A stretch of DNA of 64,000 nt from a virus (IMGVR_UViG_3300031857_000018:105329-169328); one strand, 5' to 3'. Positions 32,680 through 52,798 are shown, counted from the stretch's first letter. Program-made: numbers and translations. The notes: a model not told the origin generated them from the letters alone.

Positions 32680-32869
32680 TGTCTATGTTCCTTTTTTTAT
32701 ATATCGGCCAATTTTTTGTTTGTTCGTTTAACCAGGCCTGTCGATCATCACACCCACAATCTTCATCTAGTATCTGTGCAATTCGTTTTGCTAGCTGATC
32801 TAATCCTGTTGCAACAGTTATTTTTTTAATATCGTCGCCTAAGCCTTTACTTTGCATCAATTCCTCCAT
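32663..32869 (-). CDS. small phage protein
   Basis: SKGLGD...DCGCDDRQ..LN. Confidence 0.7.
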   Translation of the reverse strand: MEELMQSKGLGDDIKKITVATGLDQLAKRIAQILDEDCGCDDRQAWLNEQTKNWPIYKKRNIDNGDNK

Positions 32870-34205
32870 TGTTCATTGAGTTTCTAAGTTGCATGATCAT
32901 TGTTTGATACTGAGCCGTTTGTGGTATTTCAAACACAGTTCGTCCTGGAAACTGATAATCATGTTCTGGATGCATCATTAGCATATGACCCGTTTCATCA
33001 ATTCCTAACACAGGATGTGCTACTTCACGCATTGTGATCGCCCCGGTTGGAGTTGGTATCATGGTGCAGAAGCCTGGATGTTTCCATTGTCCTTCTGGAT
33101 CAATTACTCCGCCTGTTTTTCGTATAACATTGGCCCAACCTTTAAGGTCTAATGGTCGTTTGCGCGTAACATGCAAAACCAATGATTCTGTTATTTCTTT
33201 TTCATCGTCTGATTTTAGGAAGGCAGATGGCATAATATGTTTATCCATTTTGAGTGCCTTTGCTAGTATTGCTACTAAACTACCACCTGGCATAATTGCT
33301 ACTGTAGTTAGTCCTAACAGTTTCACCACATCTTTCATTTGGTTACGAACCCATGCCCATTCTTCCGAAGTTAGTTTCTCACCGTTAATATGACGAAGCA
33401 GCATCACCATGGCTTGTTTGGTTTCATCTTTCTCAGTACGCATTGCCGAAATAAAGTGTTTTACTTTATCCTTTGCTTTGTTAACTGTGTCAGCCATATT
33501 GATTTCATTTAAAGAACTTTCTAACGCAAGTTGACCCATTGTAATCTTTTTTTCAAGGTTCTTTAAACGTTCGATATATCCTTTATTACGTAGATGTTTG
33601 AATGCCATGTTTTCCACCGAATACTCGCCTTCTGCTTCTAAACCAGTTTGGCGAAGATGCTGGAGTCGTTGTGTGATGTTTTTAATTTTTTGTTCTATGT
33701 GTGGATCCGTCTCTTTGAGTGAATCAATATCGTATTCGTATGGTTCTGCTTTTTGTTGAATGGCTCCATCATCTACAGTAACAGTGTCGGAGGCTGGTTT
33801 GCGTATCCATTTATCACGTAGCACGGAATATATTCCTACTGATGAATGCAAGTCCTCATTTGAATCTTGGGCATACAACTCAATGTTCATGCCTTTATAT
33901 GTTAAAGGGTGTGTAGTGTTCCATATGCTTTTCTTTGCATGCATATAATTTTTAACTATGTGTAGATTGTCTCCAATTTCTAAATAGTTAATAACAACAT
34001 GCAAATCAATATCACTATGTTCCGTCCAATTGTAATTAGCACTACTACCGATGATTATAACATCATGGATATCACAACGTACTTCTAAGAAATTGTAAAA
34101 TGCTTTTGCAATTTTCATGAACCCAACACGAAGCTTGGGATGAAGTTTGTCTCCATCCCAAAGCTTTGGATTAAGTGTGCTATGTGTTTGATATTCGGTT
34201 ATCAT
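32847..34205 (-). CDS. multidomain nucleotidyltransferase-like protein
   Basis: GSSANYNW...SDIDLH pol-beta NTase motif, followed by additional C-terminal domains. Confidence 0.8.
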   Translation of the reverse strand: MITEYQTHSTLNPKLWDGDKLHPKLRVGFMKIAKAFYNFLEVRCDIHDVIIIGSSANYNWTEHSDIDLHVVINYLEIGDNLHIVKNYMHAKKSIWNTTHPLTYKGMNIELYAQDSNEDLHSSVGIYSVLRDKWIRKPASDTVTVDDGAIQQKAEPYEYDIDSLKETDPHIEQKIKNITQRLQHLRQTGLEAEGEYSVENMAFKHLRNKGYIERLKNLEKKITMGQLALESSLNEINMADTVNKAKDKVKHFISAMRTEKDETKQAMVMLLRHINGEKLTSEEWAWVRNQMKDVVKLLGLTTVAIMPGGSLVAILAKALKMDKHIMPSAFLKSDDEKEITESLVLHVTRKRPLDLKGWANVIRKTGGVIDPEGQWKHPGFCTMIPTPTGAITMREVAHPVLGIDETGHMLMMHPEHDYQFPGRTVFEIPQTAQYQTMIMQLRNSMNNGGIDAK

Positions 34206-36721: not shown

Positions 36722-36751
36722 ATTATAATTTCCTATTTATTATAAATATCA

Positions 36752-37099
36752 TCATTTCCAAAAGAGCTGTATTAAAATCAATGCAAATGCTAATCCGAGA
36801 GACACTGCTGTTTTTAAATTGATGGCTTCATCCCGGAATACCCAGGTCATGATGGCAAACATAGTAATACCAGTAACAAATGAAACAAATCGACCCGGCC
36901 AAAATGCACCGTCAAACCCGGTAACTGCAAATCGTGTTGCTTCCATAAACAACCAAGTGATTGGAACACCCATTAGCATAAGTGCCCATCGGTATGTTTT
37001 AGCCCATGGCCATATTAATGGTCCATTTGTTTGTATCCAAACGAAGCTTTGTCCTACTAAAAAAATTAATATGGAAAATATAATGTATTTATAGTTCAT
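36752..37099 (-). CDS. small four-TM (SMR/DMT-like) membrane protein
   Basis: Four hydrophobic helices; start MNYKYII. Confidence 0.65.
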   Translation of the reverse strand: MNYKYIIFSILIFLVGQSFVWIQTNGPLIWPWAKTYRWALMLMGVPITWLFMEATRFAVTGFDGAFWPGRFVSFVTGITMFAIMTWVFRDEAINLKTAVSLGLAFALILIQLFWK

Positions 37100-37137
37100 A
37101 TCATATAATATGAAATTTACTACAGAATTCAAAGTAA

Positions 37138-37710
37138 TTATTTATTAGAGTCAGATGCGTATTTAACACCCATGATAGTGCCGATGATACTAAAAGCATT
37201 TGTTAGCAATATACCAAACATATTACTCCACGTGCTACCAATGATCTGAGTATCTTTATTAACAAACAATGCAACCATATATATAACGGTAGTTGTGACA
37301 CCTACTCCGATTATGATAATAAGTGATATACGAACAATTAGATTGATTAACTCGAACTGAGTTCGTTTTTGTATCATGTCTAAACTGTCCATGGCGGCAT
37401 CGCGGGCTGTTTCAGCATCACATTTGGATTGTTCTGCATCCGTTGCTGCTTGTTGAAGTTCTATCATCAACTGTTGATTTTGTTCGTTTGATTCAACTAG
37501 TTGTTTGTTTTGATCTTGTATTTGTTTGGTTATTTCTAATCGTTTTCGTCGATTTTCTTTATCGCGGGTTGTGCATGTTTTTATATATGCATCAAACTCA
37601 ATATCATCGGTTGAATCAATTAACTTTAGAATGTTGCCTTCTAGAGCTATATTTTTACGGGCATATAACTCAATTAATTTTTGTTTAGTATTATCATCTA
37701 ATACTATCAT
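37138..37710 (-). CDS. coiled-coil protein with two C-terminal TM helices
   Basis: Heptad region plus two TMs; ATGA-coupled to the receiver gene. Confidence 0.8.
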   Translation of the reverse strand: MIVLDDNTKQKLIELYARKNIALEGNILKLIDSTDDIEFDAYIKTCTTRDKENRRKRLEITKQIQDQNKQLVESNEQNQQLMIELQQAATDAEQSKCDAETARDAAMDSLDMIQKRTQFELINLIVRISLIIIIGVGVTTTVIYMVALFVNKDTQIIGSTWSNMFGILLTNAFSIIGTIMGVKYASDSNK

Positions 37711-38144
37711 CGATACACTTTAAATGGGGCAGTGCGTGCTTTATACCCGTCATAGTCTGCGCGGAATTGTTCTAAACGAGGTTCGATATCATCTGACTTA
37801 ATTATCCAAAACTGTGCGCCGGCTTGAATTGCCTTTGCTTGTTCTTCTGGTTCATTTGATGATGAGATGATTCCAATAACCACGTTATTACCATACTCAA
37901 AATTAATTTTTCTGATAAGTTCGATACCATCAAACGAACTACCAATAATATTCAAGTCAACAAATACACATTCGGGTTTATCGTTAGCATCGCCACTTTG
38001 AAACCATTTTTGAAACAGTTTTGCTGCTTCGTCGGAACTATTTAATGAGTTTAAAGACAAACTTATATCGAGCAATGAACATGCATCTTCAAATACTAAG
38101 TGGAATAAATCTTCATCATCTACCAATAAAATTGAATCAATCAT
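37707..38144 (-). CDS. single-domain response regulator (receiver only)
   Basis: LLVDDE, VFVDLNI phospho-Asp, ISSS, IIKS. Confidence 0.9.
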   Translation of the reverse strand: MIDSILLVDDEDLFHLVFEDACSLLDISLSLNSLNSSDEAAKLFQKWFQSGDANDKPECVFVDLNIIGSSFDGIELIRKINFEYGNNVVIGIISSSNEPEEQAKAIQAGAQFWIIKSDDIEPRLEQFRADYDGYKARTAPFKVYR

Positions 38145-39750
38145 TTTTGCTTTCCTTTATTTTTATTTTCATTTTTGTGCCTGTTTCATTTTTTTCACAG
38201 GTAATATTAAATCCATGTTCTTCTAAAATAGCAACACAAATATTTAAACCCAAACCAGTTCCAGCTTCAGTTTGGCCTTCTTTCCGAGTATATGGTTTTG
38301 ATAAATGATCAAAATCTTTTTGTGTAATACCTCTACCATTATCTTGAACGTAAATGGTATCATCATCGGAATATATTTTAACAAACTTAGTGTCAGAATC
38401 ATTATACTTTAAACCGTTTCTAATCAAGTTATCCAATGCTGTACAGAACAATGCTTCGTTTACTTCGATGGTTGGTAACTGGTCGATAATAACTTGACTA
38501 CTGTATGCAGTTGATGACAAGTAATCGGATAATATCATTTTCAAATCACATTCAGCTTTATTTAGTACAACATCTTTTTTTACGAGATTGGTAAATTCAT
38601 ATACACCTTTATACACTTTTTGTGAATGTTTCAATCCTTCTTTAATCATGCGGATTGGGGCTTCAATTTTTAATGAACTAATATCATCAGAACTTAATCT
38701 TCTTTCTAACGAACTAAGTCCCCTAGGCATATACGTATTAATACCTGAATGCATATCGTGTCTTAATATCTTAGCTGCGTGTTCTAGATACGTATTTTTC
38801 TTTTCAATCTCTTTCTTTTGTTCATATGAATCGGTAATATTAGTAGCAATTTTCAATATGCGATATATCTTGCCGTCCATTCCGATAATTGGATTATAAG
38901 TTGATTGTAAATACACTAAAGAGCCATCTTTTTTAACTCTTGTAATTTCACCGGTAAATAATATACCGTCATTTAGTTTTTTCCAAAAAAGAGCATATTC
39001 TTCACTGTTAAAATGTGTGTCGTCTATAAATATTCTGTGGTGTTTTCCGACTAGTTCATCAGCTGAATCATATCCCATGGTTGTTAAAAACAAGTCATTA
39101 GCAAAAATAATGTTACCTTCTAAATCAAATTCAATAACTGCGTTAGATTTATTTATGGCATTCATTCTATTACGAATTTCTACTTCTTTTTTCTTAAGCT
39201 CCGTAACGTCTTGTCGTATTGATGAAAACCCTTCTAAATTGCCATGTTTATCAAATCGGGCTCTAATGTATGTGTCGACATAATATAGGTCACCTGTTTT
39301 TGTTTTGTTGGTGACAATTGCATTCCATATCTCACCTTTCATCACTGTTTCATACATCTTACCCCAGTACCCATCGGGTTGTAGACCAGAGTTTACGATG
39401 ATATGATCTTTACCGATAACCTCATCTAAAGACCATCCTGATACTTCTTCAAATTTTTTATTAACGTATGTTATTTTACCAGTTTTATCAGCAATTGAAA
39501 TAATTGCAGCTGTGTCAATAAACTCATCAGTATCTTTTATTTTTTTTAATAAAGTACTTGTTATATCAGCTGCGTGTGATTTCATTAAAAAATAAAATAG
39601 TGGTAAGAACACTAAAAAACACACAATTTCAATTCCGCGTGTAATGTAACTAGAATCTAATACTGAAAAGAATACTAAACCTTTTGTTATAGCAAAAACT
39701 ACTAATGTTACTATGGTAATACCTTTAAGTATTTTATGTAAACTAATCAT
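38137..39750 (-). CDS. membrane PAS-PAS sensor histidine kinase
   Basis: Two TMs; two PAS/PAC domains; ILRHDM H-box; NLIRNGLKY; DNGRGI; GTGLGL. Confidence 0.93.
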   Translation of the reverse strand: MISLHKILKGITIVTLVVFAITKGLVFFSVLDSSYITRGIEIVCFLVFLPLFYFLMKSHAADITSTLLKKIKDTDEFIDTAAIISIADKTGKITYVNKKFEEVSGWSLDEVIGKDHIIVNSGLQPDGYWGKMYETVMKGEIWNAIVTNKTKTGDLYYVDTYIRARFDKHGNLEGFSSIRQDVTELKKKEVEIRNRMNAINKSNAVIEFDLEGNIIFANDLFLTTMGYDSADELVGKHHRIFIDDTHFNSEEYALFWKKLNDGILFTGEITRVKKDGSLVYLQSTYNPIIGMDGKIYRILKIATNITDSYEQKKEIEKKNTYLEHAAKILRHDMHSGINTYMPRGLSSLERRLSSDDISSLKIEAPIRMIKEGLKHSQKVYKGVYEFTNLVKKDVVLNKAECDLKMILSDYLSSTAYSSQVIIDQLPTIEVNEALFCTALDNLIRNGLKYNDSDTKFVKIYSDDDTIYVQDNGRGITQKDFDHLSKPYTRKEGQTEAGTGLGLNICVAILEEHGFNITCEKNETGTKMKIKIKESKND

Positions 39751-40167
39751 TTATCGTATACCTTTATGCTTATCTAATGCATCTAGAATTTGATTAAGAA
39801 CTGGTGCTTTTATAAACCCTGCCATCGATGCATTTTTAAGTGTACTGATAATTTGTAATATAATGAATGGAATTAAAATTGTTTCACTTAACCAAGAAGT
39901 TCCTGGATATCCTTTTTCTACAGACAGCAACACCGTTAAAATTATAATCCATGTTGCGGCTGTTCGAAGTACTTTGATTGCTTTACATGTTTGAAAACCT
40001 TCTCGCTTTATTCCAGCAATTACACCAAAAAACCCATCGACAAACACTACTGCAATTAATGCTAGATATTGCTCGTAATAGTCGATAGATAGATTAAAAA
40101 AATACGAACATATAAATGATATCATGGTCGTTGTGGATAATATTATTGCTAGAGCGGTTGTTTTCAT
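39751..40167 (-). CDS. holin-like multi-TM protein
   Basis: Several TMs; DGFFGVIAG and STLKNA motifs; adjacent to the endolysin genes. Confidence 0.7.
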   Translation of the reverse strand: MKTTALAIILSTTTMISFICSYFFNLSIDYYEQYLALIAVVFVDGFFGVIAGIKREGFQTCKAIKVLRTAATWIIILTVLLSVEKGYPGTSWLSETILIPFIILQIISTLKNASMAGFIKAPVLNQILDALDKHKGIR

Positions 40168-40958
40168 TTTATATCTGAAGATTCAATTAAAGTATATGAA
40201 AATTTATTACCATTTGCTGTTTTAGCTTTGCGACAAATTGACATAAACTCTTCAAAATCAGCAGAACGTTTAAATACCTGGCAGCCTTCCGACCAATTTT
40301 CTACATATGTTGAATCAGCGCCGGCTTTATGAATGTTGATTCCAAATACACCTTCTTGAATTGATTTTTCATCATATACCATATCTTTGTTTGGATCGCG
40401 GAACACTTTAACTGGTTTGTTTTGTCCTAATGCTTCATACTTCCCGGCATGCAAACGCATTATGTGTGAATCGATATATTGTCCTTCTACTAAACGAGCA
40501 ACACCAGCTTTGTTTCCATACTGCATTACGCCTTTTGTTCCTGGATCGGTTGTTGCTGACCAACAATGGAATTTTTCTTCTCCGTTTACGGTGTAAGATA
40601 CTGTAATGTGATCATCGAATAGATTGGTTACTTTCTGTCCAGTTGCTGAATTACGAACTCCGATTATATTTAAAACATAATCGTTGCCATCAAACCATTT
40701 ATATCCTTTTGCTTTTACTGCTGACTCAATTTGGTCTTTTGTGTATTTTGAAACCGATGCTGGTTTTGCTTCTACAACGATTCCCATCTTAGCTAATGTT
40801 GCTGGGCCGACTACTCCATCTGCAGTTAATCCATTTTTAGTTTGCCACGCTTTAACTGCTTCTTCTGTTTTAGGTCCAAAATTTCCTACTGGATCTACAC
40901 CTAATACTACTTGAATTTTTTTAACCGTCTCGTTGTTATCACCTTTTTTTAGTATCAT
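40164..40958 (-). CDS. peptidoglycan-binding-domain cell-wall enzyme
   Basis: PGBD (G.FGPKTEEAVKAWQ..NGL.ADGVVGPAT); GINIH...WSEGCQV (L,D-transpeptidase-like H/C). Confidence 0.82.
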   Translation of the reverse strand: MILKKGDNNETVKKIQVVLGVDPVGNFGPKTEEAVKAWQTKNGLTADGVVGPATLAKMGIVVEAKPASVSKYTKDQIESAVKAKGYKWFDGNDYVLNIIGVRNSATGQKVTNLFDDHITVSYTVNGEEKFHCWSATTDPGTKGVMQYGNKAGVARLVEGQYIDSHIMRLHAGKYEALGQNKPVKVFRDPNKDMVYDEKSIQEGVFGINIHKAGADSTYVENWSEGCQVFKRSADFEEFMSICRKAKTANGNKFSYTLIESSDIK

Positions 40959-40985
40959 AAAACTATCCTTATTCGTAATTGTTGT

Positions 40986-41447
40986 TTAATCTTTCTTAAA
41001 ATATAAATTTGCTTCTGCTTCGCGGCGACGAACTAGACCCCTTAACACGCGGCCTCCTGCCTTTGTCCATTTCATGAACTCAGCTCGGATAGTTTCGTCT
41101 GACGGATCAGCATTAACTTTTTTTAATAATGTTGATGATTTTAGGTTTGCTGGACCTAGATTGTAGGCAAATGATACTAATGCATCGAATTGATTCTGAT
41201 TGATGTCATCTCGACAATATGAATCTACATACTGCTCAAAACTTGCTAACATGCTTTTCAATAAGTCTGTGCCATGGACTTCCGTGATTGGAGTATCGGA
41301 CATTGTTACTTTTTTACCACCTGGATAAAAAGTTGCGCCGTAACCAATAGTAGGAATTCCTGCAGGGCACTTATAAGGTGCTGCGCGGAACCCTTCCATT
41401 GTTTTGATTATTTCAATTCCGGCCGTTCCTGTTTTTGTAATTTTCAT
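40986..41447 (-). CDS. phage lysozyme (GH24 endolysin)
   Basis: EGFR..PY.CPAGIPTIGYG, QFDALVSFAYNLG, GLVRRREAE. Confidence 0.95.
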   Translation of the reverse strand: MKITKTGTAGIEIIKTMEGFRAAPYKCPAGIPTIGYGATFYPGGKKVTMSDTPITEVHGTDLLKSMLASFEQYVDSYCRDDINQNQFDALVSFAYNLGPANLKSSTLLKKVNADPSDETIRAEFMKWTKAGGRVLRGLVRRREAEANLYFKKD

Positions 41448-41465
41448 GACTGTTTAAACCTTTAT

Positions 41466-41684
41466 TTATTTTTTCATTAAAAACTTTTCAGCTACATTAC
41501 CAGCAATACAGATAATTACAATAGTTTTAACTGCGTCTACTAGGTCTGTAGATGGTTTAATTGATTCATGTGAATATGAATTTAACACCATGGTAACAGA
41601 AATAAATAGGAATCCTAAAAATGCAATAACTCGTTTCATTGAGGTGTCTCCACCGGTAAACATTTCTTTGATAAAATTTTTCAT
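41466..41684 (-). CDS. small two-TM holin-like protein
   Basis: SMKRVIAFLGF; two TMs; first gene of the lysis unit. Confidence 0.65.
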   Translation of the reverse strand: MKNFIKEMFTGGDTSMKRVIAFLGFLFISVTMVLNSYSHESIKPSTDLVDAVKTIVIICIAGNVAEKFLMKK

Positions 41685-41709
41685 GTAGCTACTTTCTTAT
41701 ACTTCAAGT

Positions 41710-41718
41710 ATAAATATC
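41710..41718 (-). promoter_or_regulatory. class-II (late-type) promoter motif GATATTTAT
   Basis: Same motif at 18147, 28806, 32070, 36742, 57603; variants at 13507, 22722, 30752. Confidence 0.6.
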
Positions 41719-41742: not shown

Positions 41743-42597
41743 TTATTCTTCAGAAACTGCTCGACCTATTTGTCTAGTCCAATCTAGGTCTGTGCGCACT
41801 ATAACATTTTTAGTCATTGCGGCTACTAACATTGTTCTGTCGACACCTAGTTGGTTTGCAAGATATGCTAACGCAGCTATGTCTTTAGGAAAACAATGCC
41901 CCCCAAAACCAAAATCGCCATCATGGCCAGGAACTGACCAATGTGAATTGCCCAATCGATCATCATAACGGGCATATTCGATTACTTTATCATAATCAAT
42001 GTTTAAACCTTGGCAGATCTGATACATTTCGTTTGCAAATGAAATTTTTGTGGCTAAGAATGTATTAGTTACATACTTGATCATTTCAGCAATGGTACTG
42101 CTTGTTTTAATGATTGGCACTTTAGGAAATGCCTTTTCAAAATATCGTTTAACAATTGTAGTAGCAGAGTTAGGTCCTCCGAGTATGATTCGATTTTGAT
42201 TTTTATAATCATCAACTGCGTTAGACTCTGTTAAGAACTCTGGATTAAACACAATATCCAATTCAGTGTATAATTTATTTAATCGATCTGTTGTTCCTGG
42301 TGGAATAGTAGACTTAACAACTACAATATAATTTTTCTTATTGTATGCAATTACGTTGTTTTGAATTTCTGTTAGTGCAACATTTAAAATTTTTAAATCA
42401 CATTCACCAGATTTCATCATCGGAGTAGGAACACATACAAATGCAATATCAGTGTTTAAAACTACATCTTCGATGCCGTTAACATTGCGAAATTTGTTTC
42501 CATCTTTATCATATGCTTTAATATCAAATACATGTTGCATTCCTAATCGCACAGCATTTCCTACAAACCCCTGGCCAATAATTCCTAATGTATTCAT
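41743..42597 (-). CDS. UDP-glucose/GDP-mannose dehydrogenase family protein (short form)
   Basis: GQGFVG, CVPTP, KSTIPPGT, NPEFL, GFGGHCFPKD. Confidence 0.92.
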   Translation of the reverse strand: MNTLGIIGQGFVGNAVRLGMQHVFDIKAYDKDGNKFRNVNGIEDVVLNTDIAFVCVPTPMMKSGECDLKILNVALTEIQNNVIAYNKKNYIVVVKSTIPPGTTDRLNKLYTELDIVFNPEFLTESNAVDDYKNQNRIILGGPNSATTIVKRYFEKAFPKVPIIKTSSTIAEMIKYVTNTFLATKISFANEMYQICQGLNIDYDKVIEYARYDDRLGNSHWSVPGHDGDFGFGGHCFPKDIAALAYLANQLGVDRTMLVAAMTKNVIVRTDLDWTRQIGRAVSEE

Positions 42598-42598
42598 A

Positions 42599-43456
42599 TT
42601 ACAATCCGTTAATATATTGCTTTAATTTATCTGTCGGTGTCCAATTTAATAATTCTAACGCTACATCTCGTTCACGTAATGTTATACGATAGTTTCCTTT
42701 TTGATCTGGTAAATATGTTGTTGTGCAATTGAACTTCTCTATAAACATGGCTGCTACTTCATTCATTGAATAATTTACTCCAGTACCCAATTCCCACGCA
42801 TCCTCGATATAATGTTCAGTTTCCATGATTCGAATCAATCCATCAACAATGTGGTCTACATGTGTGAAATCTCTGCGCTGTTCGCCATCACCAATAATAG
42901 TAATTGGTTGTCCGTCTCGTACTTGTTTTCTCCAAATTCCAATCACAGCTGCATAGTCGCCATCCACAATTTCATTTGGTCCATACACATTGTAAAATCT
43001 TGCAATCTGCACTTTAAGTCCATAACACTCTTCATACATCTTACAAATTTCTTCTCCTAAGAACTTGCTTAAAGCATATGGTGAAATCCTAGGATTATGC
43101 CAACGGGATGATGATCCTGCATACACAACCTTTGCATCCGTATGTCTAGCATATTCTAAAACTTTGAAAGTTCCTGTTGTGTTTGCGTCATATGTTTCTA
43201 ATGGTAGTTTAAATGATATTTGAATACGTGCAACTGCAGCAATATGGAATATAACATCAAATTTATCAACTGCTGGATTAAATATATTATCAATGTTATT
43301 AACATCATCTATAATGTATTTAACATTCTCTATTTTATTGTCCAATGTGCCGCAAGATAAATTGTCAATACATGTTACGCCATGTCCTAATGCAACCAAT
43401 TGTTTACATAAGTTTGAGCCAATAAAGCCTAGCCCACCTGTTACTAAAATTTTCAT
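42599..43456 (-). CDS. NAD-dependent epimerase/dehydratase
   Basis: TGGLGFIGS, YALSK, RFYNVYGP, RDFTHV. Confidence 0.93.
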   Translation of the reverse strand: MKILVTGGLGFIGSNLCKQLVALGHGVTCIDNLSCGTLDNKIENVKYIIDDVNNIDNIFNPAVDKFDVIFHIAAVARIQISFKLPLETYDANTTGTFKVLEYARHTDAKVVYAGSSSRWHNPRISPYALSKFLGEEICKMYEECYGLKVQIARFYNVYGPNEIVDGDYAAVIGIWRKQVRDGQPITIIGDGEQRRDFTHVDHIVDGLIRIMETEHYIEDAWELGTGVNYSMNEVAAMFIEKFNCTTTYLPDQKGNYRITLRERDVALELLNWTPTDKLKQYINGL

Positions 43457-43466
43457 ATTCTAATTT

Positions 43467-44231
43467 CTATTTGTTTGTTATAAATTTTTTGTTTGTTAAT
43501 GGATCGTGTCCTATGTATCCACCCCATTTGTATCGGGCATATTCATGGCCGGCTTGTTCTGCCAAGTTACGTTTCTCTCCATTTGCAGAAACTGCCGCAA
43601 AGTGATAAAAATGACAGTTCCATGTTCTTAGCATACGTAGTCCTGATAGTTGACATTTTAAAAAAAAGTCCCAATCGGCTACCATACCCATTTCATAATT
43701 TTCATCCCATCCGCCAACTCGAAGATAATCAAGCTTTGACATAAAGATAGGAAGTGTGGATCCACATTCCTCAGTTTTATCCCCAGATGCATAATGATAA
43801 TCAAACAACCAAAATGCTTCAAGATCGAATGATGCAATGTCAGTTCCTAAATTTTCTATAATAAACTGAGGAAACATACTAGGAAACGGTTCTACTTGAT
43901 TAGGTGTTATTACAGCACCTTCTTGCCATTCTTCTTCCAATGTAGAATCCCAAAATCTTGGAAACACGTTATCGTCATTAACAATAAGTATTTTATCATA
44001 TCGCGAATTGTATACACCTAGATTAGTTCCCCGACATTGACCTGCATTTTGTTCTAAGTTCAATATATCAATTGAATCTTTCCAACGGTCTAAGACCTCT
44101 TTATTCAAGTCATAGTACCCGTCTACAACAACGATAATCTGATTTTTATTGCATTGTCCTTCAATTGCAGAACGCAAACAAAGATCCAATGCGTCTGGAC
44201 TTTTATATGTAGGAATTATTACTGATATCAT
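43467..44231 (-). CDS. glycosyltransferase family 2
   Basis: ISVIIPTY, VNDD, GGWDE, DWD. Confidence 0.88.
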   Translation of the reverse strand: MISVIIPTYKSPDALDLCLRSAIEGQCNKNQIIVVVDGYYDLNKEVLDRWKDSIDILNLEQNAGQCRGTNLGVYNSRYDKILIVNDDNVFPRFWDSTLEEEWQEGAVITPNQVEPFPSMFPQFIIENLGTDIASFDLEAFWLFDYHYASGDKTEECGSTLPIFMSKLDYLRVGGWDENYEMGMVADWDFFLKCQLSGLRMLRTWNCHFYHFAAVSANGEKRNLAEQAGHEYARYKWGGYIGHDPLTNKKFITNK

Positions 44232-44923
44232 AGTGTTGACCAATCTGTTAATGGTGATAACCAAGCTGTTTCACCATGGGTAGCATAACCAGGAATCGGT
44301 GTTATTAACAATTGGTTTTGTTTTCTCAATTCTAAAAACATATGAAAATCATTAGGATGTGTACCGGCTGTGTGTGTTCTCAGAATTGTTTCTGTAAATT
44401 TCAATGTTGATACTTTGCTAGCAAATGTCATCGTAGTTGAATTAGTAATTTTCCAATGGCATGAATCCGTTAAGTAAATACGGGTATCTTCAGCACCGCC
44501 TTCACAGTATGGATTTCCGCCGCGGCTTGGATCTAAGTACTTGTCTGGATGATCGTATAGTGCAACGAATGATGCACCTAAGTCAAATCCTTGTTTCAAT
44601 ACATCTGGAGAACCTTGCTTATGTAAATAATCATTTTCTACAAAATACACAATTTCATCATCTGCATAGGTTAATGCTTTATCTAACGCTAAATTGAATG
44701 TGCCGGCACCATTACCAACCGATACCTGAATGATATTTGCTGGGTCAATGTATCGTTTAATCATTGCTAACGTAGCATCACTACAATTGTCCGCAATAAT
44801 TAGAATGTCATAAATATGATTAAAAAATACATTGCAGAAATTTTTTAAACATGATTCATTGTTGATGTAGTCTGGCTTTACTTTATTGTAACCAGCATCT
44901 GATATTCTATATATTATTTTCAT
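44228..44923 (-). CDS. GT-A fold glycosyltransferase
   Basis: IADNC, YFVENDYLH. Confidence 0.75.
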   Translation of the reverse strand: MKIIYRISDAGYNKVKPDYINNESCLKNFCNVFFNHIYDILIIADNCSDATLAMIKRYIDPANIIQVSVGNGAGTFNLALDKALTYADDEIVYFVENDYLHKQGSPDVLKQGFDLGASFVALYDHPDKYLDPSRGGNPYCEGGAEDTRIYLTDSCHWKITNSTTMTFASKVSTLKFTETILRTHTAGTHPNDFHMFLELRKQNQLLITPIPGYATHGETAWLSPLTDWSTL

Positions 44924-45876
44924 TTTAAAAATACGTTGTTAAACTGTTTCATTACCAACTCTGGTGAATACATTGAATATGCATTCCAATTTTCATGTTT
45001 ATTTATAATATCCGGAAAATTTGTTAAAATTCCAATTAATTCGTCATAGTTGTTATAGATTATTGATTTATCTCCTAGCATTTCAATATGTGCTAAATCA
45101 TTGAATCCGGAATCACACCACGATGTTGTTATAATTGGTTTATTTTTTACAGAAAATTCAGCTACAGTTAAACCAAATGATTCTCCTCCATTTCTTGCGT
45201 GTATACACGCATCACATGTATTAATAAATCCAATCTTTGTAGTCATATCAGATGTGCCACTTATAAAAAATACATTTGACTCATCGCAAAATTGATTAGA
45301 ATTCATAAACAAAAAATACATATTTTTGTTAGCTCGTGCAACATTTATAACAGCTTCGCGAGCAAATGGAATATTAAATGAATCCGGGCCGCCATAATAT
45401 CCAAATACTAGTGCATCTGTTGGTATATTAAAAAATTGACGATAGTTTTCCATATGGTCGTATTTTAAAATATCAACAATATGCGGGACAAATGGCAATG
45501 TACCGCCTGACATTTGTGTTGATAACCATTTAGATACATATGCATATACATCTCCGTGTGGATCATGTAACTGAAAAACGGAATGTACTAAATTTTTAGC
45601 ATTCGGTACTAGTTTGCCATCATTCATACCAGCTTTTATATAATAAACGGCATCAATTTGATTTTGATCGATATAAGATATAACATCATCAAATTTGTCA
45701 TATAAAAATACATTAAACTGTTTTTGAAATTTATCCAATGCAGCTAAATCTGAGTTTCGATTTGATATAATTACTGAATCATTGTTTAATAATTCTTGAT
45801 TATAATATGCATAATCAAATAAGGCAATTTCAGTTCCTCGAAGGCCTAGTTGTTCACTATGAAATGCAATTTTCAT
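44920..45876 (-). CDS. GT-B fold (GT4-like) glycosyltransferase
   Basis: RGTE; GESFGLTVAEF (ExFGL...E). Confidence 0.82.
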   Translation of the reverse strand: MKIAFHSEQLGLRGTEIALFDYAYYNQELLNNDSVIISNRNSDLAALDKFQKQFNVFLYDKFDDVISYIDQNQIDAVYYIKAGMNDGKLVPNAKNLVHSVFQLHDPHGDVYAYVSKWLSTQMSGGTLPFVPHIVDILKYDHMENYRQFFNIPTDALVFGYYGGPDSFNIPFAREAVINVARANKNMYFLFMNSNQFCDESNVFFISGTSDMTTKIGFINTCDACIHARNGGESFGLTVAEFSVKNKPIITTSWCDSGFNDLAHIEMLGDKSIIYNNYDELIGILTNFPDIINKHENWNAYSMYSPELVMKQFNNVFLK

Positions 45877-46562
45877 ATATTTAAAAAGTTGTTTAATTTG
45901 TTAATGTTCATTGTAATATCACCAGGTACCCGATCAGGCTTATACGATGGTTTAACTCGATCATTGGTTTTTATTGCTAAGTCGTATATAGTTTTAGAAT
46001 CTGTACCAACATTGTAGACTCCAGTTGCTTGTTGATGAATCAGTTTAACAATTAAATTGCTAATAACATCTACAGAATCACAATTTGTATGTATATCTAC
46101 CCAAGCAGTATCATACGGAAATGGATTAGGTTTATGTGATAATCGACAAATTAAATAGTTGTTACTTCGTAATTGAACTAATGCATCGCCAACTAATTTT
46201 GTGTAACCATACCAAGTTGGTATGTGAACTGGGACATCGGTTTCTGATGCTACTGGTACAGAGCCGGCATAGATATAATCGGTAGAAATATGAATTAATT
46301 TTTTGTTAGTCGAATTGCATACATCAATTAAATCGTTGAGAGCTTGAAGATTAACGTCCCACGCTGTTTGCATATCTACGCCGTATGTATCAGTATATGC
46401 AATACAGTTAACTACAGTATCGTATGAATCATTTAGTAAATGTGACCATTCTGATAACTGAGTAATATCAATATTGTTATGTGTTCTGGAAATATAGTCC
46501 CAATTGGTTTGCCGAATTAATTCTTGTCCCAATAAGCCTTGTCCGAGTACAACTACGTTCAA
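45873..46562 (-). CDS. RmlD-like sugar-nucleotide reductase
   Basis: GQGLLG, NCIAYT, HISTDYIY, YGYTK. Confidence 0.85.
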   Translation of the reverse strand: MNVVVLGQGLLGQELIRQTNWDYISRTHNNIDITQLSEWSHLLNDSYDTVVNCIAYTDTYGVDMQTAWDVNLQALNDLIDVCNSTNKKLIHISTDYIYAGSVPVASETDVPVHIPTWYGYTKLVGDALVQLRSNNYLICRLSHKPNPFPYDTAWVDIHTNCDSVDVISNLIVKLIHQQATGVYNVGTDSKTIYDLAIKTNDRVKPSYKPDRVPGDITMNINKLNNFLNI

Positions 46563-47848
46563 AATTTAAAATCCTTTATAACTTGTTCTATATACATAAA
46601 TACCTCATCCGTATAATGTGGTGCTGCTCCAATAAAGAACACTGAATCTAAAACTTTGTTAGCTTCTGGATATTTAGATGAATCATCTAAAAAACTATAA
46701 CCTGGATGTAGTAATATGTTCCCGGCAAAATAGTTTCTTGTTTGTATTTTATTCTTTTCTAGATGTTCTACTAGTTTATGTTTCAGCCCCGGTGTTTCGC
46801 ATATGAATGGAGTTCCAAACCAACATGGTTCTGCTGATTCTAAGGTTACCGGAGTTCGTAAATTTGGTATATGCTTTAAAAATATATCACTAATTACAGT
46901 TTTTGATCTTTTTCGTTTTGATTCAATATCATCTAGTTTTTTCAACTGTTCGATGCCGATGGCTCCTTGTAAATCTAATGGCTTAAGATTATACCCCATT
47001 TCTGAAAATACATACTTATGATCAATTACGCCATCGTAATTATCTAACCACTTATCAAAACGATTACCGCATGTGCCACACGCTAATAGATTTGCTGATC
47101 CTATACAATAGCAGTCGCGACCCCACCAACTAATTGACACAAATAACTTTTTTAATTCATCATCATTTGTACAAATCATTCCGCCTTCTCCGGTGGATAT
47201 ATGATGTGCTGGGTAGAATGAATTTGAAAATGCAACGTAATATTCATTTAAATATTTGCCATTCCATTTAGATCCTAAACTATCACAATTATCCCCAACA
47301 AGTTTCAAATTGTATTTTTCACATAGTTCTAGTAATCTATCAATGTTCGGTGGATTACCTAGTACTGGAGAAACAAAGATTGCTTTTGTTTTTGGAGTAA
47401 TTTTTTGTTCAAGTAAATCCAAATCAAAATTCAAGGTGTCCCATTCAATATCAACAAAAATTGGTTTTAATCGATGTTGATAAATTACTGATATTGTAGT
47501 TGCAAACCCAACAGGCGACACTATAATTTCATCATCATCAGCCCAATTAAATCTACGCTTCAATGCAGCAATCAAAACCAAATTGGCTGAACTACCTGAG
47601 TTTACCATGTGTGAATGTTTAACATTGAACTTTTTACTAAACTCGAGTTCAAACTTATAAACTCGTTCTCCGGTAGTAATCCATTTACCATTCAAAAATG
47701 AATGAATTGCAGCTTCGGTTTCTTTTTCATCCCAATATGGTCCTGAGTAATATATTGGAGTAGTGCCCGGTATAAAATTTTTATTATTGTAAATATATGG
47801 AGCTACGTGATTGCCAATTAATGTTTGTATGTCGCTTTTTTGTATCAT
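46559..47848 (-). CDS. DegT/DnrJ-family PLP enzyme, RfbH/DdhC-like 3-dehydratase
   Basis: VNSGSSANL; SFYPAHHISTGEGG (His in place of the Schiff-base Lys); WGRDCYC..CG cluster motif. Confidence 0.9.
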   Translation of the reverse strand: MIQKSDIQTLIGNHVAPYIYNNKNFIPGTTPIYYSGPYWDEKETEAAIHSFLNGKWITTGERVYKFELEFSKKFNVKHSHMVNSGSSANLVLIAALKRRFNWADDDEIIVSPVGFATTISVIYQHRLKPIFVDIEWDTLNFDLDLLEQKITPKTKAIFVSPVLGNPPNIDRLLELCEKYNLKLVGDNCDSLGSKWNGKYLNEYYVAFSNSFYPAHHISTGEGGMICTNDDELKKLFVSISWWGRDCYCIGSANLLACGTCGNRFDKWLDNYDGVIDHKYVFSEMGYNLKPLDLQGAIGIEQLKKLDDIESKRKRSKTVISDIFLKHIPNLRTPVTLESAEPCWFGTPFICETPGLKHKLVEHLEKNKIQTRNYFAGNILLHPGYSFLDDSSKYPEANKVLDSVFFIGAAPHYTDEVFMYIEQVIKDFKF

Positions 47849-48558
47849 TGTTGTGTATAATTTTTAAATTCAGTAACTGATGGAAATTCTGTTAACTTGC
47901 CAAAATGTTGTTCTAACAATGGATCAAATTCAAACGGCGGTGTGCCATTAAATGGTGTTGTATACTGATAGTTTCCCCATTTATGTTTAACGTATTCTGC
48001 ATTATGTTGACCAACCTTTAAGCTAGGAGAATTTGGATCAGTAGATGTGGAATTTCCGTTAAACATACTAGGAACATTTAGATTTATGTTTTGTACATTA
48101 TGCAATTTACAGCGATGGTCATAATCGTTATCTTCACACCCAGCCCATAGTATATTTTCATCAAATCTACCAACCGTATTAAATATGTCTCGATGCATGC
48201 AATATAGTGCATATCCAAATCCGTTATTGTATGTGGTAGCTAATGATGTGGCAGTTGAATTATCCCACAATGCATCCAGAATTTCCAAACTGAATCTGGA
48301 ATCTTCTTCACTAACAATAACTTTTTCTAGTCCCATATGGTTGAATGCGATATCACATATAAAATTCCATCCTCCTGCGCAGCCAATATTGGTTGTGGTT
48401 GTATAGACATCAAAATTATCAGTTATATACGAATTTAGTTGCTGTCGCCCGTTATCGATAAAGTAAAATTGATATTCATCAGAATAATTGGCTAAATTGA
48501 ACCATTCAGTAAAATAATCATTTGCATTATATCCTAATACAAAAACATGTTTTTTCAT
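47845..48558 (-). CDS. GT2-like glycosyltransferase
   Basis: IDNG, NIGCAGGWN, VGRFDE...EDND. Confidence 0.8.
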   Translation of the reverse strand: MKKHVFVLGYNANDYFTEWFNLANYSDEYQFYFIDNGRQQLNSYITDNFDVYTTTTNIGCAGGWNFICDIAFNHMGLEKVIVSEEDSRFSLEILDALWDNSTATSLATTYNNGFGYALYCMHRDIFNTVGRFDENILWAGCEDNDYDHRCKLHNVQNINLNVPSMFNGNSTSTDPNSPSLKVGQHNAEYVKHKWGNYQYTTPFNGTPPFEFDPLLEQHFGKLTEFPSVTEFKNYTQQ

Positions 48559-49439
48559 AATAAACTTTCTATAATTTGTTCTATAACTTCACTATCTGTA
48601 TAATAAGGATTCATCATCAAATGTCCAACCGTTTCAAAATATTTATCTGGTCCTAGTTGTGGAGACTCTATCTTTTTTAATACTCCGTTAGGTCCGTATA
48701 ATTGATATATGAAATCTCCAGTTAAAATAGTGCGACACCCTACCCCGGCAGCTAAATTTGCTAACCCGCCTTCAGTTCCTATAAATGCATCGCAATGCTT
48801 TAAAACAGACGCTTCAAACAAAATTGACTTTGTATCAGTATCTGCTACATGTATAGTTTGTTGTTGATTTGCTGAATCAAACCCAATTGGATACAATGTA
48901 AAATGTTCCTGTAAGCCATCAATTATATATTGAATATCGCGATGACTACCACCGTAACCTAAATTAGGAACATCGACTCCGGCTTCATACTGTTCCGGTG
49001 TAAATAAATAGGTTTTTGGTTGCCAATTGGACATTACTCCTATAACCGGCTTACCTGTTTCTTGTCGAATATCGTTTATATATTTTTCTGCTACAACATC
49101 GTATTCTGGTGTAGTGTATATTTGATATGATTTTGAAACAACATCAAACCCTGCTTGTTGTTGATATTCTTCACATGGCGTAATTTCATAATGTAACTCA
49201 CTTAATTCAATAACACGATCATATCCAGATAATTCCAAAACCGGTCTAGGTCCAGGAATACTAGAAACAAATACTTGGTTGATAAATGGATTATTAGCAA
49301 CAAGCTGTTGCATTTGTGGAAATCCAATTAAATAATCAACTTGTGTATATTGTGTTGATAATGTTTCTGCTAATGATGTAGCAAACATAATGTCACCAAA
49401 GAAACCATATGTAACTACTAAACATTTAGTATTTTGCAT
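48555..49439 (-). CDS. GT9-like (heptosyltransferase-type) glycosyltransferase
   Basis: GDIMFAT; DAFIGTEGGLANLAAGVG. Confidence 0.78.
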   Translation of the reverse strand: MQNTKCLVVTYGFFGDIMFATSLAETLSTQYTQVDYLIGFPQMQQLVANNPFINQVFVSSIPGPRPVLELSGYDRVIELSELHYEITPCEEYQQQAGFDVVSKSYQIYTTPEYDVVAEKYINDIRQETGKPVIGVMSNWQPKTYLFTPEQYEAGVDVPNLGYGGSHRDIQYIIDGLQEHFTLYPIGFDSANQQQTIHVADTDTKSILFEASVLKHCDAFIGTEGGLANLAAGVGCRTILTGDFIYQLYGPNGVLKKIESPQLGPDKYFETVGHLMMNPYYTDSEVIEQIIESLL

Positions 49440-49797
49440 AACTTTTTTCTTCTATAAATGTAGACCCATATTTCAAGTTGATTTGTTTTTTAATATCAGC
49501 TCTGAGGTCGTTTGTAATGTATACTTGTCGAGCATATTCCACAAACATGTCATCAAACTGTTTTCTGGATTCCATTTCTCGTAAAACATCTTCAATATCC
49601 CACAGTTTAACATTTATTGCAACTAACTGCTCATAATCAGACATTGCAATATTCAAATCCGCAAAAACTATTTCATGCAAATACAAGTATTCGCGATTAA
49701 CATTTTCCAACTTGGCAGAATCGGTTATCTTTTGTCGTTTAATGTCTAAGATTGAAAGCTTATCAACAATCTCCCCTACTGATACTTCTATATTCAT
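49426..49797 (-). CDS. DUF6165-like protein
   Basis: VSVGEIVDKLSIL...N.KLWDIED...ND.R..IK..IN...EEKSY. Confidence 0.75.
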   Translation of the reverse strand: MNIEVSVGEIVDKLSILDIKRQKITDSAKLENVNREYLYLHEIVFADLNIAMSDYEQLVAINVKLWDIEDVLREMESRKQFDDMFVEYARQVYITNDLRADIKKQINLKYGSTFIEEKSYAKY

Positions 49798-50543
49798 TGT
49801 TCAACACGATAATTAGTACTTTTAATCCAACGCACATTGGGCAGGCCTGCGACGAATTCTTCAATATCTGCTTTCACATTACGATACCCTAAATGTCGAT
49901 ATTCATATGCCCGAGCAAATAATTGTCGACCTTCAACAAAGTCTTTTTGATGTTCCACGGTCTTTTTTGACATATCTCCGTTGTCAGCATGATATAGGCA
50001 TAAGAATGTACCTGTTTCATTTCTTACAGGTGTGTATCCAGCCCATTTAAAACGTTCTCTGAGATCTTCATCTTCATTTCCCCATCCTTTGTATAATGGA
50101 TTCAATCCGTTAATTGCATCCCATTGTTCTTTGCGGATTACAACTACGCCACCATAAAAGTTTTCATCGATACCATCTTCCCATTTACGATACCCACCTG
50201 GAATATCATAATAGTCTCGTTTGGTTAGATCTGGATTCACAAAAATTCCTTTGCGAGCTGGCAATACTGGTTGGTCTGCAATTGCATAACTAACATCGTC
50301 AGTTGGACAATAATCAACTTGATGCAACACAATGATGTTACCGGTTGCAACTTGTGCTGCTACATTCTGTGTGTTTGCTAAATTGAAATTGTCTGTATCG
50401 TTTTGTTCAGACACAATAATTTCAAAATCCATTCCTTCAAAATGTTTAAATAGTGCCGGAATCAATGTTTCTAAATGTTCTTTACGGTCACGATAAGGAA
50501 TAATAATTGAATACTTATCGTTTGAAATTTGCGATTCTGTCAT
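49794..50543 (-). CDS. GT7-like galactosyltransferase
   Basis: IIIPYRDR, FYGGV, GWGNEDED. Confidence 0.85.
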   Translation of the reverse strand: MTESQISNDKYSIIIPYRDRKEHLETLIPALFKHFEGMDFEIIVSEQNDTDNFNLANTQNVAAQVATGNIIVLHQVDYCPTDDVSYAIADQPVLPARKGIFVNPDLTKRDYYDIPGGYRKWEDGIDENFYGGVVVIRKEQWDAINGLNPLYKGWGNEDEDLRERFKWAGYTPVRNETGTFLCLYHADNGDMSKKTVEHQKDFVEGRQLFARAYEYRHLGYRNVKADIEEFVAGLPNVRWIKSTNYRVEQ

Positions 50544-51288
50544 ATTGATGTACTACTTTATATTGTGAAACTGTGTTTAAATCAAATGCAACTAACCCTG
50601 CGTTAATTACATGTAAATGCACTGCAAACTTATCTTCTAATGTGGTAAATTTGGTTTGCTCTTTGTATTTGGTTTGTATGAGGTAATTAAATGATGTTTG
50701 ATCTGCTACTTTAAGTTTACCGGCAGATAACAAATAAATATCCATACACATTTCTTGAACTAATGCCAAAGGACCTCCCCATACACCGACATTATGTACT
50801 TGTTTATCTGACAATACATCTATTCCAATCAAGCCTAAGTTCACATATACATGTTCTTTGTTCCATGCTTCTTGGTTGTAAGTAATAATTTCGCTCGTTG
50901 CTGTGATCTTATCTGGATCTAGTCCGTCAAATGGATTTGAGTTAAAATATACATCTCGTACATCCGTAATAATAACGTGTGCATGATCTGCTGTTTTTAG
51001 ATAGGACCATATATGGAAGAAACGAACATTGTGAATCAGATTATATGATGATTCAACTGTCATTGTTCCGGTATTGGTGGTAAATTCTGGCAATTCTCTG
51101 CCCCAGCAGTCAAATGTAGGATTCATGATCGATACATTGTTTTCTTTGAGATATTCTACCAATGTGTCTGTTGCATTATAAATAAGCAACATTCTTTCTA
51201 CATTCTCAAAATTAGATGTCTCAACCCAACCCTGCACATCTGCGACTGTATAATTGCCTGAGATAGCTCCTATTAATAAATTTTTCAT
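50515..51288 (-). CDS. putative glycosyltransferase
   Basis: TDVRDVYFNSNPF, DQ..FN, HQYDR. Confidence 0.7.
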   Translation of the reverse strand: MKNLLIGAISGNYTVADVQGWVETSNFENVERMLLIYNATDTLVEYLKENNVSIMNPTFDCWGRELPEFTTNTGTMTVESSYNLIHNVRFFHIWSYLKTADHAHVIITDVRDVYFNSNPFDGLDPDKITATSEIITYNQEAWNKEHVYVNLGLIGIDVLSDKQVHNVGVWGGPLALVQEMCMDIYLLSAGKLKVADQTSFNYLIQTKYKEQTKFTTLEDKFAVHLHVINAGLVAFDLNTVSQYKVVHQYDRIANFKR

Positions 51289-52241
51289 AAGTTTAATAAC
51301 TTTAATATATTATAAGTAATTTTTGGATAGGATATATTATTTTCGTACCAGTTTTTTGCATTATTTTTTACAAATTCTAGCAATTCTTTGTTTCCAATAA
51401 CTTCATGATATCTTGCTGCAATTCTTTTAGACAATTCATCCGGGTTTGCATATCGATATTCGGCATCGTATTCTGCATCTACTGCTACGTAATGAAAATC
51501 TGGTATCAATGGGTCAGATGTCTCAACAATAAGTGTAGGCCGCATTAAAGGTATGCCTATTCCAAACATTTCGATATCACGAAAACACAAATCGCCACAT
51601 AGTGCACCACCTCCACCGCCGATTGATAATGCTAATTCAAACTGAAATGATTCTTGTAAATAATGTTCAAACGGAATCGGGCCGGCGCCAAAGTATAATT
51701 CGGATTCATTTAAATGATTTGGTAGAAGTTCCAATGATTTTCTAACTCCTAGATATCGGGTGTCGACGCCTGAATTATACAAACTACCGCGCCAATATAA
51801 TCTAGAATCTAGTTTAATGCTTTGACGGTGTGTTTGTATCATATCATAGTTTGTGCCTAGTTGCCACACAGTATCTGGGTATGGTCCGGCTACTATATTT
51901 TTACGAATTACTGGATCTGTACATATGGTATCCCAAAACGCTGAATTATATTGTCCAATCACAGCGCCAACAAATCCAGGCTTTGATGATAATTCTACAG
52001 TTAATGATGGATGATCTCCAAAGTCGAATGTTTTAAACGTATCATCATATTCAAATATGAGTATGGATCCTTGGTTAATTGCAACGCCGGCATACACCGT
52101 GTTTCCATCACCAACGTGCTCATTCCATTCAACATCATATCCGCGAGTATGTAATTCATTAACAATTCCAATTGTATTGTTATGATCAAAACGGTGTTCT
52201 GCAATTCCTTTATGAAAACTGTGTAATTTTATTTTTGTCAT
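51285..52241 (-). CDS. putative glycosyltransferase-like protein
   Basis: LYWRG; LSIGG...CFRDIE; island context. Confidence 0.6.
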   Translation of the reverse strand: MTKIKLHSFHKGIAEHRFDHNNTIGIVNELHTRGYDVEWNEHVGDGNTVYAGVAINQGSILIFEYDDTFKTFDFGDHPSLTVELSSKPGFVGAVIGQYNSAFWDTICTDPVIRKNIVAGPYPDTVWQLGTNYDMIQTHRQSIKLDSRLYWRGSLYNSGVDTRYLGVRKSLELLPNHLNESELYFGAGPIPFEHYLQESFQFELALSIGGGGGALCGDLCFRDIEMFGIGIPLMRPTLIVETSDPLIPDFHYVAVDAEYDAEYRYANPDELSKRIAARYHEVIGNKELLEFVKNNAKNWYENNISYPKITYNILKLLNL

Positions 52242-52795: not shown

Positions 52796-52798
52796 AAA

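Follow-up and report, generated by a model that had tools for sequence, protein, structure and literature searches.

We identified, in a stretch of 64,000 nucleotides of viral DNA (IMGVR_UViG_3300031857_000018:105329-169328, hereafter the window), a unit of eight closely packed minus-strand genes in which a sensor histidine kinase (HK1), a stand-alone receiver and a coiled-coil membrane protein (CC) follow a set of lysis genes. The window makes up the final 64 kb of an IMG/VR virus record that is 169,328 bp long and rated 100% complete, and all positions below are those of the window. The unit lies between two copies of a promoter-like motif, at 41716 and 36748, and encodes in order a holin-like protein with two transmembrane (TM) helices, a GH24 lysozyme, a PG_binding_1/phrog_3000 enzyme, a Phage_holin_4_1 protein, the 2TM-PAS-PAS kinase, the bare receiver, CC and a 4-TM protein. 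The widest intergenic gap inside it measures 27 nucleotides (nt). A preliminary description of the locus had listed the first seven of these open reading frames (ORFs), and all seven hold up in strand, coordinates and domains. The same is true of the tight junctions: the enzyme and holin genes overlap by 4 nt (40164/40167), the holin and kinase genes abut (39751/39750), the kinase and receiver genes overlap by 8 nt (38144/38137) and the receiver and CC genes by 4 nt (37710/37707). The absence of internal promoters and terminators, also claimed there, agrees with our consensus scan inside the unit, which returned no convincing candidate of either kind. The downstream end had to be moved, since the next motif copy sits only at 36748 and the unit therefore comprises eight genes. 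The closing gene (tm126, 36752-37132, minus strand) encodes a 126-amino-acid protein with four TM helices and no family match, relatives of which (37-40% identity) lie within about six genes of the kinase, receiver and CC genes in some lineages.

HK1 (38137-39750, minus strand) is a protein of 537 amino acids. Two TM helices at its N-terminus are followed by two PAS domains (PAS1, 39181-39543; PAS2, 38806-39180), a predicted DHp domain with the putative phospho-acceptor H331 and a HATPase_c domain. Pfam matches were obtained for PAS_9, PAS_3 and HATPase_c (PF02518, 5.7e-16), and the N, G1 and G2 boxes of the latter are all present. Across 23 sequences of HK1 and of HK2, a second kinase found in relatives, residues H331, N441, N445, D470, G472, G474, G499 and G501 are invariant; H331 and D332 stand within an equally invariant RHDMHSGINTY motif, in a helical region just ahead of the catalytic domain. 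Compared with the PDB, the kinase core matched HK853, CpxA and EnvZ, with the HK853 alignment beginning at the second DHp helix. The closest solved structures to PAS1 are MmoS PAS-A (1.1e-25), Aer (1.3e-15) and NifL (3.4e-9); the same three lead for PAS2, in the same ranking and with weaker scores. MmoS, Aer and NifL are redox sensors that carry flavin adenine dinucleotide (FAD). Both PAS domains are assigned by sequence to this FAD-binding clade, which points weakly to moderately to redox as the cue of HK1. The kinase gene falls in the 2-kb bin with the lowest guanine-plus-cytosine (GC) content of the window (38001-40000; 0.31 vs 0.35-0.43 elsewhere).

The receiver (37707-38144, minus strand; 145 amino acids) carries the phospho-acceptor D63 and matches PF00072 over residues 5-117 with 35.2 bits, above the cut-off of 30.2. 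It has no output domain and is of the single-domain Response_reg type. Over 24 phage lineages its mean column identity is 88%, with D9, D10, D63, S94 and K116 invariant, and these key residues are also kept in distant relatives. The claim of an intact kinase paired with an output-less receiver is therefore borne out, as H331 and the N/G1/G2 boxes on one side and D9/D10, D63, S94 and K116 on the other are invariant in our alignments. Natural fusions of HATPase_c to the receiver exist (receiver identity 80-83%), with CC next to them in a 4-nt overlap, and the DHp/H-box is nearly identical between the paralogous HK1 and HK2, which are otherwise merely 35-41% identical. Because of these fusions and of the shared DHp/H-box, kinase and receiver can be regarded as cognate, and phosphotransfer from HK1 to the receiver is strongly indicated. 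Genome-wide we found a single kinase ATPase domain and a single receiver, and no DNA-binding regulator; in a genome rated complete, this argues that the relay is self-contained.

CC (37138-37710, minus strand) is a 190-amino-acid protein built of a small N-terminal domain (N-domain, residues 1 to about 75), a coiled coil in heptad register and a C-terminal 2-TM hairpin. It has no family match in Pfam, PHROGs or PADLOC. Its AlphaFold2 (AF2) model, with a pLDDT of 82, shows a small helical N-domain and one unbroken helix (residues 37-149) that runs through the coiled coil into TM1, followed by the hairpin to TM2; the model is essentially one long helix and a hairpin. In the alignment the N-domain and the coiled coil are kept, and TM2 is polar and almost invariant. 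The linker between two conserved anchors measures 76 residues in 150 sequences, 69 in five and 41 in two, namely the window and its closest relative (L002). These differences amount to exactly one and five heptads (7 and 35 residues), so that the helical register is preserved whichever linker length is used.

The N-domain also occurs outside CC. At one locus (L089) HisKA and HATPase_c domains take the place of the hairpin behind the same N-domain and the first segment of the coiled coil. A word-based search for longer N-domain proteins had returned none, and it was the later exhaustive profile search that found them: against 1.84 billion representative proteins, the profile matched 199 clusters, with the domain N-terminal in all of them, and five of the six long matches combine the N-domain with HisKA and HATPase_c. 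Each fusion with a readable context (P0153, P0162, P0164, P0203 and L089) adjoins a bare receiver. At one fusion locus (L091) the neighbouring kinase core is 60% and the receiver 70% identical to those of the window, and the flanks encode YceI, an AraC-type regulator and AP_endonuc_2. We discarded as probable chimeric gene calls an N-domain joined to FecCD (P0201), another joined to an Rpb1_5 RNA polymerase domain (P0145) and a 313-amino-acid GmrSD_N protein whose receiver match is 92% identical over 49% of its length (P0275). Judged from these matches, the N-domain is a new, almost purely viral family. Because it is fused to kinase cores beside bare receivers, we read the N-domain as an input module and CC as a part of the relay. 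It would behave as a signal-input module that is paired with a bare receiver and drives whatever ends the coiled coil.

Contact between the receiver and CC is moderately indicated. The preliminary description had named both the adjacent 190-amino-acid protein and the holin as possible targets of the receiver; the former is indirectly supported by the N-domain fusions and by the coupling of the two genes, whose ends overlap, by 4 nt or by 1 nt, in 41 of the 42 distinct pairs. Nothing in our analysis supports the latter. Complex prediction of the receiver with residues 1-80 of CC, both entered as alignments, gave a median score of 0.20 vs a mark of 0.32 (runs of 0.44, 0.20 and 0.03), values that weigh neither for nor against such contact.

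The trio of kinase, receiver and CC is a conserved unit. Scanning IMG/VR with the kinase yielded 78 distinct loci (57-91% identity, on contigs of up to 254 kb), for all of which ORFs were called and clustered. In all of the approximately 70 loci with enough flanking sequence, the three genes are contiguous, in the same order and on the same strand, amid surroundings that turn over almost wholly from one locus to the next. The constant core consists of the DHp-CA part of the kinase, the receiver and CC, and within it the receiver is conserved at 82-99% identity vs 52-65% for CC. The trio is kept in thousands of related phages, and metagenomic proteins include at least 8000 clusters of CC at 90% identity, all of them lacking a Pfam domain and an informative name. 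The genomes of the GenBank phage collection encode no relative of the receiver or of CC, in line with the earlier remark that intact pairs are unusual in lytic phages, and we found no description of a phage kinase-receiver-membrane trio in open-access papers and preprints. Five contigs of metagenome-assembled genomes (MAGs), binned to five phyla and with 39-67% GC, bear receiver relatives, and four of them bear the trio. Since the phage contigs range from 39 to 67% GC, the trio must be spread over phages of very different hosts. One such contig, with 67% GC and binned to a Gemmatimonadota MAG (L088), has the trio with a receiver of 66% identity, and a virion structural gene lies two genes upstream. 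A reading of the locus as a defence system was dropped, as PADLOC returned no match for ten proteins (the eight of the unit, the 837-amino-acid protein downstream and the secreted protein c4 from L063, described below).

The sensory inputs vary between relatives. HK1 itself occurs with extra N-terminal regions, with a GAF domain, with three PAS domains or with no PAS domain at all (L091). Additionally, many relatives (L023, L043-L050, L055, L061, L063-L065, L073-L076, L086 and L098) carry HK2, a kinase of about 440 amino acids with a signal-peptide-like start, an extracytoplasmic region of about 200 amino acids and one TM helix, the DHp and catalytic domains of which match those of HK1. Always ahead of HK2 lies the gene of c4, a protein of about 205 amino acids that bears a clear signal peptide and matches no family; HK2 and c4 are a candidate periplasmic sensing pair that would feed the receiver of the trio. 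HK2 is joined to the receiver in a single polypeptide in a few phages, and CC follows with a 4-nt overlap. We had considered that TM helices in the kinase always accompany the hairpin of CC, and rejected this rule on finding a kinase without TM helices beside a CC that has kept its hairpin (L087). Other genes recur around the trio. A 240-amino-acid NUMOD3 homing endonuclease (phrog_314) sits between HK2 and the receiver in L050, L063, L064 and L079 and disrupts neither gene. A calcineurin-like metallophosphoesterase is found repeatedly beside the trio (L029-L033, L046, L048 and L063 among others), and in several lineages a cREC_REC receiver (PF20274, 1e-18) lies near the phosphoesterase and the trio, making up a second signalling pair. 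The window has kept the phosphoesterase alone of that pair, as a homologue at 10232-10936, distant from the trio.

The lysis genes of the unit occupy its upstream half. The first one, h72 (41466-41684, minus strand), encodes a 72-amino-acid holin-like protein in the canonical position directly upstream of the lysozyme; two TM helices are predicted for the 83-amino-acid representative of its cluster (L020_22, cluster c25), and no Pfam or PHROG family matches it. In several lineages, relatives of h72 (80-85% identity) lie one to four genes downstream of CC, on the opposite strand. The lysozyme (40986-41447, minus strand) is a full-length GH24 endolysin, covering profile positions 1-125 of 125 in PF00959 with 146 bits (8.6e-43), and also matches phrog_7, endolysin (1.9e-51). 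It is followed by a protein (40164-40958, minus strand) with a PG_binding_1 domain (PF01471, 8.3e-14) and a C-terminal phrog_3000 domain (1.5e-33). Given that phrog_33083, annotated as endolysin, spans a phrog_3000 domain and a GH24 domain in a single protein, this is a probable second cell-wall enzyme; a YkuD-like H...S.GC motif in it is a candidate picked by eye, and the AF2 model of its phrog_3000 domain was too poor for a fold search (pLDDT 54). The last of the four (39751-40167, minus strand) has four TM helices and scores 27.4 bits against PF05105, above the cut-off of 22.2, and its gene shares 68% nucleotide identity with the annotated holin of Flavobacterium phage immuto. Both the score and the multiple TM helices place it in the Phage_holin_4_1 family, as a putative holin.

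The motif that heads the unit (gaTATTTATA on the coding strand, 41709-41718, minus strand) stands 32 nt 5' of the first gene, and the copy that marks its downstream end (36741-36748, minus strand), located by motif search, heads the gene of the 837-amino-acid protein. In the whole 169-kb genome the motif, aTATTTATA(t/a)taaa on the coding strand, recurs in about 30 copies at 20-35 nt 5' of start codons, and ATATTTATA is found 37 times on the coding strand vs three times on the opposite one. Within the window, copies lie at 57609, 41716, 36748, 32076, 26150, 24847, 22728, 18153 and 16065. Some precede the portal, tail sheath and head-tail adaptor genes, and others precede a phage GroEL gene (phrog_5725, 2.9e-175) and CobS/CobT-like AAA+ genes (21063-26120, minus strand), each of which is headed by the same motif as the structural genes. 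From its recurrence and position we take the motif to be a genuine phage promoter-like element that the unit has in common with structural genes. What had been called a late-type motif is therefore real, repeated and strand-biased, but not exclusively late, since GroEL and the CobS/CobT-like genes have it too; membership of a late class is plausible. The motif is the reverse complement of the T4 late-promoter word TATAAATA, yet here it stands on the coding strand.

How firmly is the trio tied to lysis? We grouped the loci into 23 lineages by 85% identity of CC, and counted the 21 that have five or more genes to either side of the trio. In 16 of the 21, a muralytic gene is found no more than five genes from the trio, at positions from -3 to +3 and on either strand, and four muralytic families are involved: PG_binding_1 with a GH19 endolysin (phrog_181, 7.8e-66), phrog_3000, GH24 and GH108. 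Moreover, an h72-like 2-TM gene stands beside CC in two lineages that have no muralytic neighbour, and in several lineages CC stands directly upstream of the endolysin gene, next to which a canonical holin gene would also lie.

Several observations weigh against a role in lysis or against the relay as such. Five of the 21 lineages have no recognised lysis gene near the trio, nor do the distant relatives (L086-L088 and L098, contigs of 43-67% GC included). The combination of GH24 and a Pfam-type holin adjoins the trio solely in the window and L002, and in the L051 genome the holin_4 gene is about 136 kb away. The endolysin linkage could reflect descent, with a gene order that related phages share, and not selection. 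Canonical holins are small, with rapidly diverging TM helices and a highly charged C-terminal tail; CC differs from them, being long (190-229 amino acids, with about 120-155 cytoplasmic residues before TM1) and having a nearly invariant TM2 and a short tail, and it matches no holin family. Kinase-fused variants of the N-domain are found in surroundings unrelated to lysis, which in at least one case are cellular (L096, beside a glutamine synthetase), so that the pair of receiver and N-domain is a general signalling device that is not specific to lysis; the receiver beside the N-domain protein at that cellular locus is, in addition, unrelated to the phage receiver. Finally, the Pfam HisKA model did not detect the DHp domain of HK1. 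Synteny in relatives is thus divided, with a muralytic gene close by in most lineages on the one hand, and variable flanks, an unlinked Pfam holin and distant relatives without lysis neighbours on the other. The preliminary description had supposed that the phage may time lysis or lysis inhibition through phosphorylation, with the adjacent membrane protein or a holin as the target. The intact, cognate kinase and receiver agree with this, the holin as target finds no support here, and timing itself is a matter of interpretation. Taken together, an effect on lysis is weakly to moderately indicated.

We propose the following course of events, building on what can be read directly from the genes: their domains, the intact catalytic residues, the conservation and coupling of the genes and the modularity of the N-domain of CC. 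HK1, anchored in the membrane, would read a cytoplasmic cue via its two flavin-type PAS domains, most likely the redox or energy state of the host. It would then autophosphorylate at H331 and pass the phosphate to D63 of the bare receiver, and the phosphorylated receiver would contact the small N-terminal domain of CC. CC might transmit the signal along its rigid coiled coil to the 2-TM hairpin in the inner membrane, where the output would advance or delay the disruption of the envelope and hence set the time of lysis. Lysis timing is the most likely use because two cell-wall enzymes and two holin-like proteins are encoded in the same late-type unit as the relay. We give an even chance to the proposal as a whole, that is a self-contained phage phosphorelay with a membrane protein as its output, most likely serving lysis timing. 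As the leading reading for this particular phage, lysis timing comes close to an even chance without quite reaching it. The wider proposal, that very abundant large freshwater phages set the moment of lysis by a His-Asp phosphorelay that gates the hairpin of CC as a membrane effector of a new kind, with flavin-PAS, GAF and periplasmic inputs, is more tentative, and we lean somewhat against it.

Alternatively, the relay and its CC output may be real but serve another membrane function, such as superinfection exclusion, control of membrane potential or transport, or envelope remodelling, so that the proximity to lysis genes would merely reflect a shared late neighbourhood of membrane and envelope genes. 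We consider this unlikely, if still deserving of attention. It would account for a trio that stays constant amid variable flanks, for the lineages and distant relatives that lack a recognised lysis neighbour and for the unlinked holin of L051. The periplasmic sensor HK2 and the secreted c4, added in many relatives, likewise indicate sensing of the envelope or periplasm, and Hsp70 genes recur near the trio as the metallophosphoesterase and cREC genes do. Such a function is harder to reconcile with the four muralytic families that stay within five genes in most lineages despite rearrangement, and with the window, where the trio has holin-like or membrane proteins on both sides within one promoter-to-promoter unit.

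CC could also be an accessory or a scaffold, the N-domain docking the receiver as CheA P2 does or the hairpin modulating the kinase, with a host protein as the real target of the receiver. The fusion of the N-domain to a kinase core in a minority architecture fits docking of the receiver on the kinase; a receiver far better conserved than CC is expected if it has another conserved partner; and HK1 and CC alike have 2-TM hairpins with short loops. Nonetheless, the receiver is 66-77% identical across phage contigs of 41-67% GC, which favours co-inherited phage partners over host-specific ones, the hairpin of CC persists beside the L087 kinase that has no TM helix, and a linker that varies by exact heptads suggests transmission to the hairpin. 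We regard the scaffold role as rather improbable. Least of all do we expect that a host operon of kinase and receiver was recently captured, a 'moron' placed by chance in the lysis block and without a phage role, for although the stretch at 38-40 kb has the lowest GC content of the window (0.31) and orthologous trios whose third gene is fused to a kinase are found in chromosomal-looking contexts, the abundance of CC clusters in metagenomes, the 78 viral loci, the invariant catalytic residues, the conserved gene coupling and the presence of the N-domain in just one of the 401 genomes sampled from the candidate host phylum, that one being the centre genome itself, bring this highly improbable idea close to refutation.

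Nearly all genes of the genome are on one strand. We found neither an integrase nor a resolvase in it, and a temperate lifestyle was dropped for this reason. By portal protein, the nearest cultured relatives are Microcystis phage Mel-JY01 (52.7%) and Flavobacterium phage immuto (49.7%). Proteins of the phage contigs include the CHU_C and Por_Secre_tail domains of type IX secretion, which indicates Bacteroidota hosts. In the window, a 660-amino-acid protein (11511-13493, minus strand) is homologous to cluster c26, whose representative bears PKD and a CHU_C sorting domain of the type IX secretion system; this phage protein appears to be routed via the Bacteroidota system, a clue to the host. Directly upstream of the lysis unit lies a run of about 17 tightly packed sugar-metabolism genes (41743-57579, minus strand), with the motif copy at 57609 in front. 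Two of its ORFs (41743-42597 and 42599-43456) resemble by eye a UDP-sugar dehydrogenase and an epimerase, and immuto has glycosyltransferases at a comparable position; the run may be a cluster for cell-surface or DNA-sugar modification. Downstream of the unit, a 452-amino-acid protein (32847-34205, minus strand) combines a weak Pol-beta-type nucleotidyltransferase N-terminus with a strong match to phrog_36119 (4e-47), and its gene is kept beside the trio in L002.

The timing of lysis sets the fitness of a phage, and its known controls are holin clocks, antiholins such as RI and RIII of T4, and transcription-factor sensors in a few temperate phages. If lysis timing by the relay is the correct reading, the phage would be sensing the state of its host in a novel manner and responding at the membrane without transcription. 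The candidate cues would be the redox or energy state and, in relatives with the periplasmic kinase, events at the envelope. A lysis clock or a lysis-inhibition system that is based on phosphorylation would have no described counterpart in any phage. The CC family is very abundant in lake metagenomes, so that such behaviour could influence bacterial mortality in nature. Moreover, our analysis defines the N-domain as a new small signalling domain that is paired with bare receivers and connected, through a register-preserving coiled coil, either to a kinase core or to a TM hairpin. This makes it a tractable system in which to study signal transfer from single-domain receivers.

Several known systems invite comparison. 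In Staphylococcus and Bacillus, the two-component system LytSR is tied to the small holin- and antiholin-like membrane proteins LrgAB and CidAB. LytR binds DNA and acts on transcription, and LytS is a multi-TM sensor, whereas the system described here is viral and its receiver has no output domain; neither a LytS nor a LytTR Pfam domain was found in the kinase or the receiver, which sets the pair apart from the LytSR type. In T4 lysis inhibition, the antiholins RI and RIII act on the holin T upon superinfection, which is sensed in the periplasm, and neither a kinase nor phosphorylation takes part. The likeness lies in phage-encoded, signal-dependent timing of lysis via contacts between membrane proteins, without any sequence relation, and a periplasmic sensor occurs here only in the relatives with HK2 and c4. 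On the sensory side, MmoS, NifL and Aer are the nearest solved structures for PAS1 and, more weakly, for PAS2; FAD binding is predicted here, and the downstream partners differ. Phage VP882 offers a precedent for a phage sensor of a host-related cue that decides when to kill, the quorum-sensing receptor VqmA-Phi (reviewed in PMC7790227). VqmA-Phi is a one-component transcription factor of a temperate phage, whereas we describe a kinase-receiver-membrane relay in a genome without a recognisable integrase or resolvase. The CheA-CheY-FliM and, in Caulobacter, the DivJ/PleC-DivK-DivL pathways are comparable too, in that a bare receiver is phosphorylated by a kinase and acts on proteins by contact, not on DNA. 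The partner of DivK is a kinase-like protein, and the parallel here is the receiver beside the variant in which the N-domain is joined to HisKA and HATPase_c. In contrast to these pathways, the relay is encoded by a phage, the predicted binding partner of its receiver is an N-domain of no described family, and the usual output is a 2-TM hairpin.

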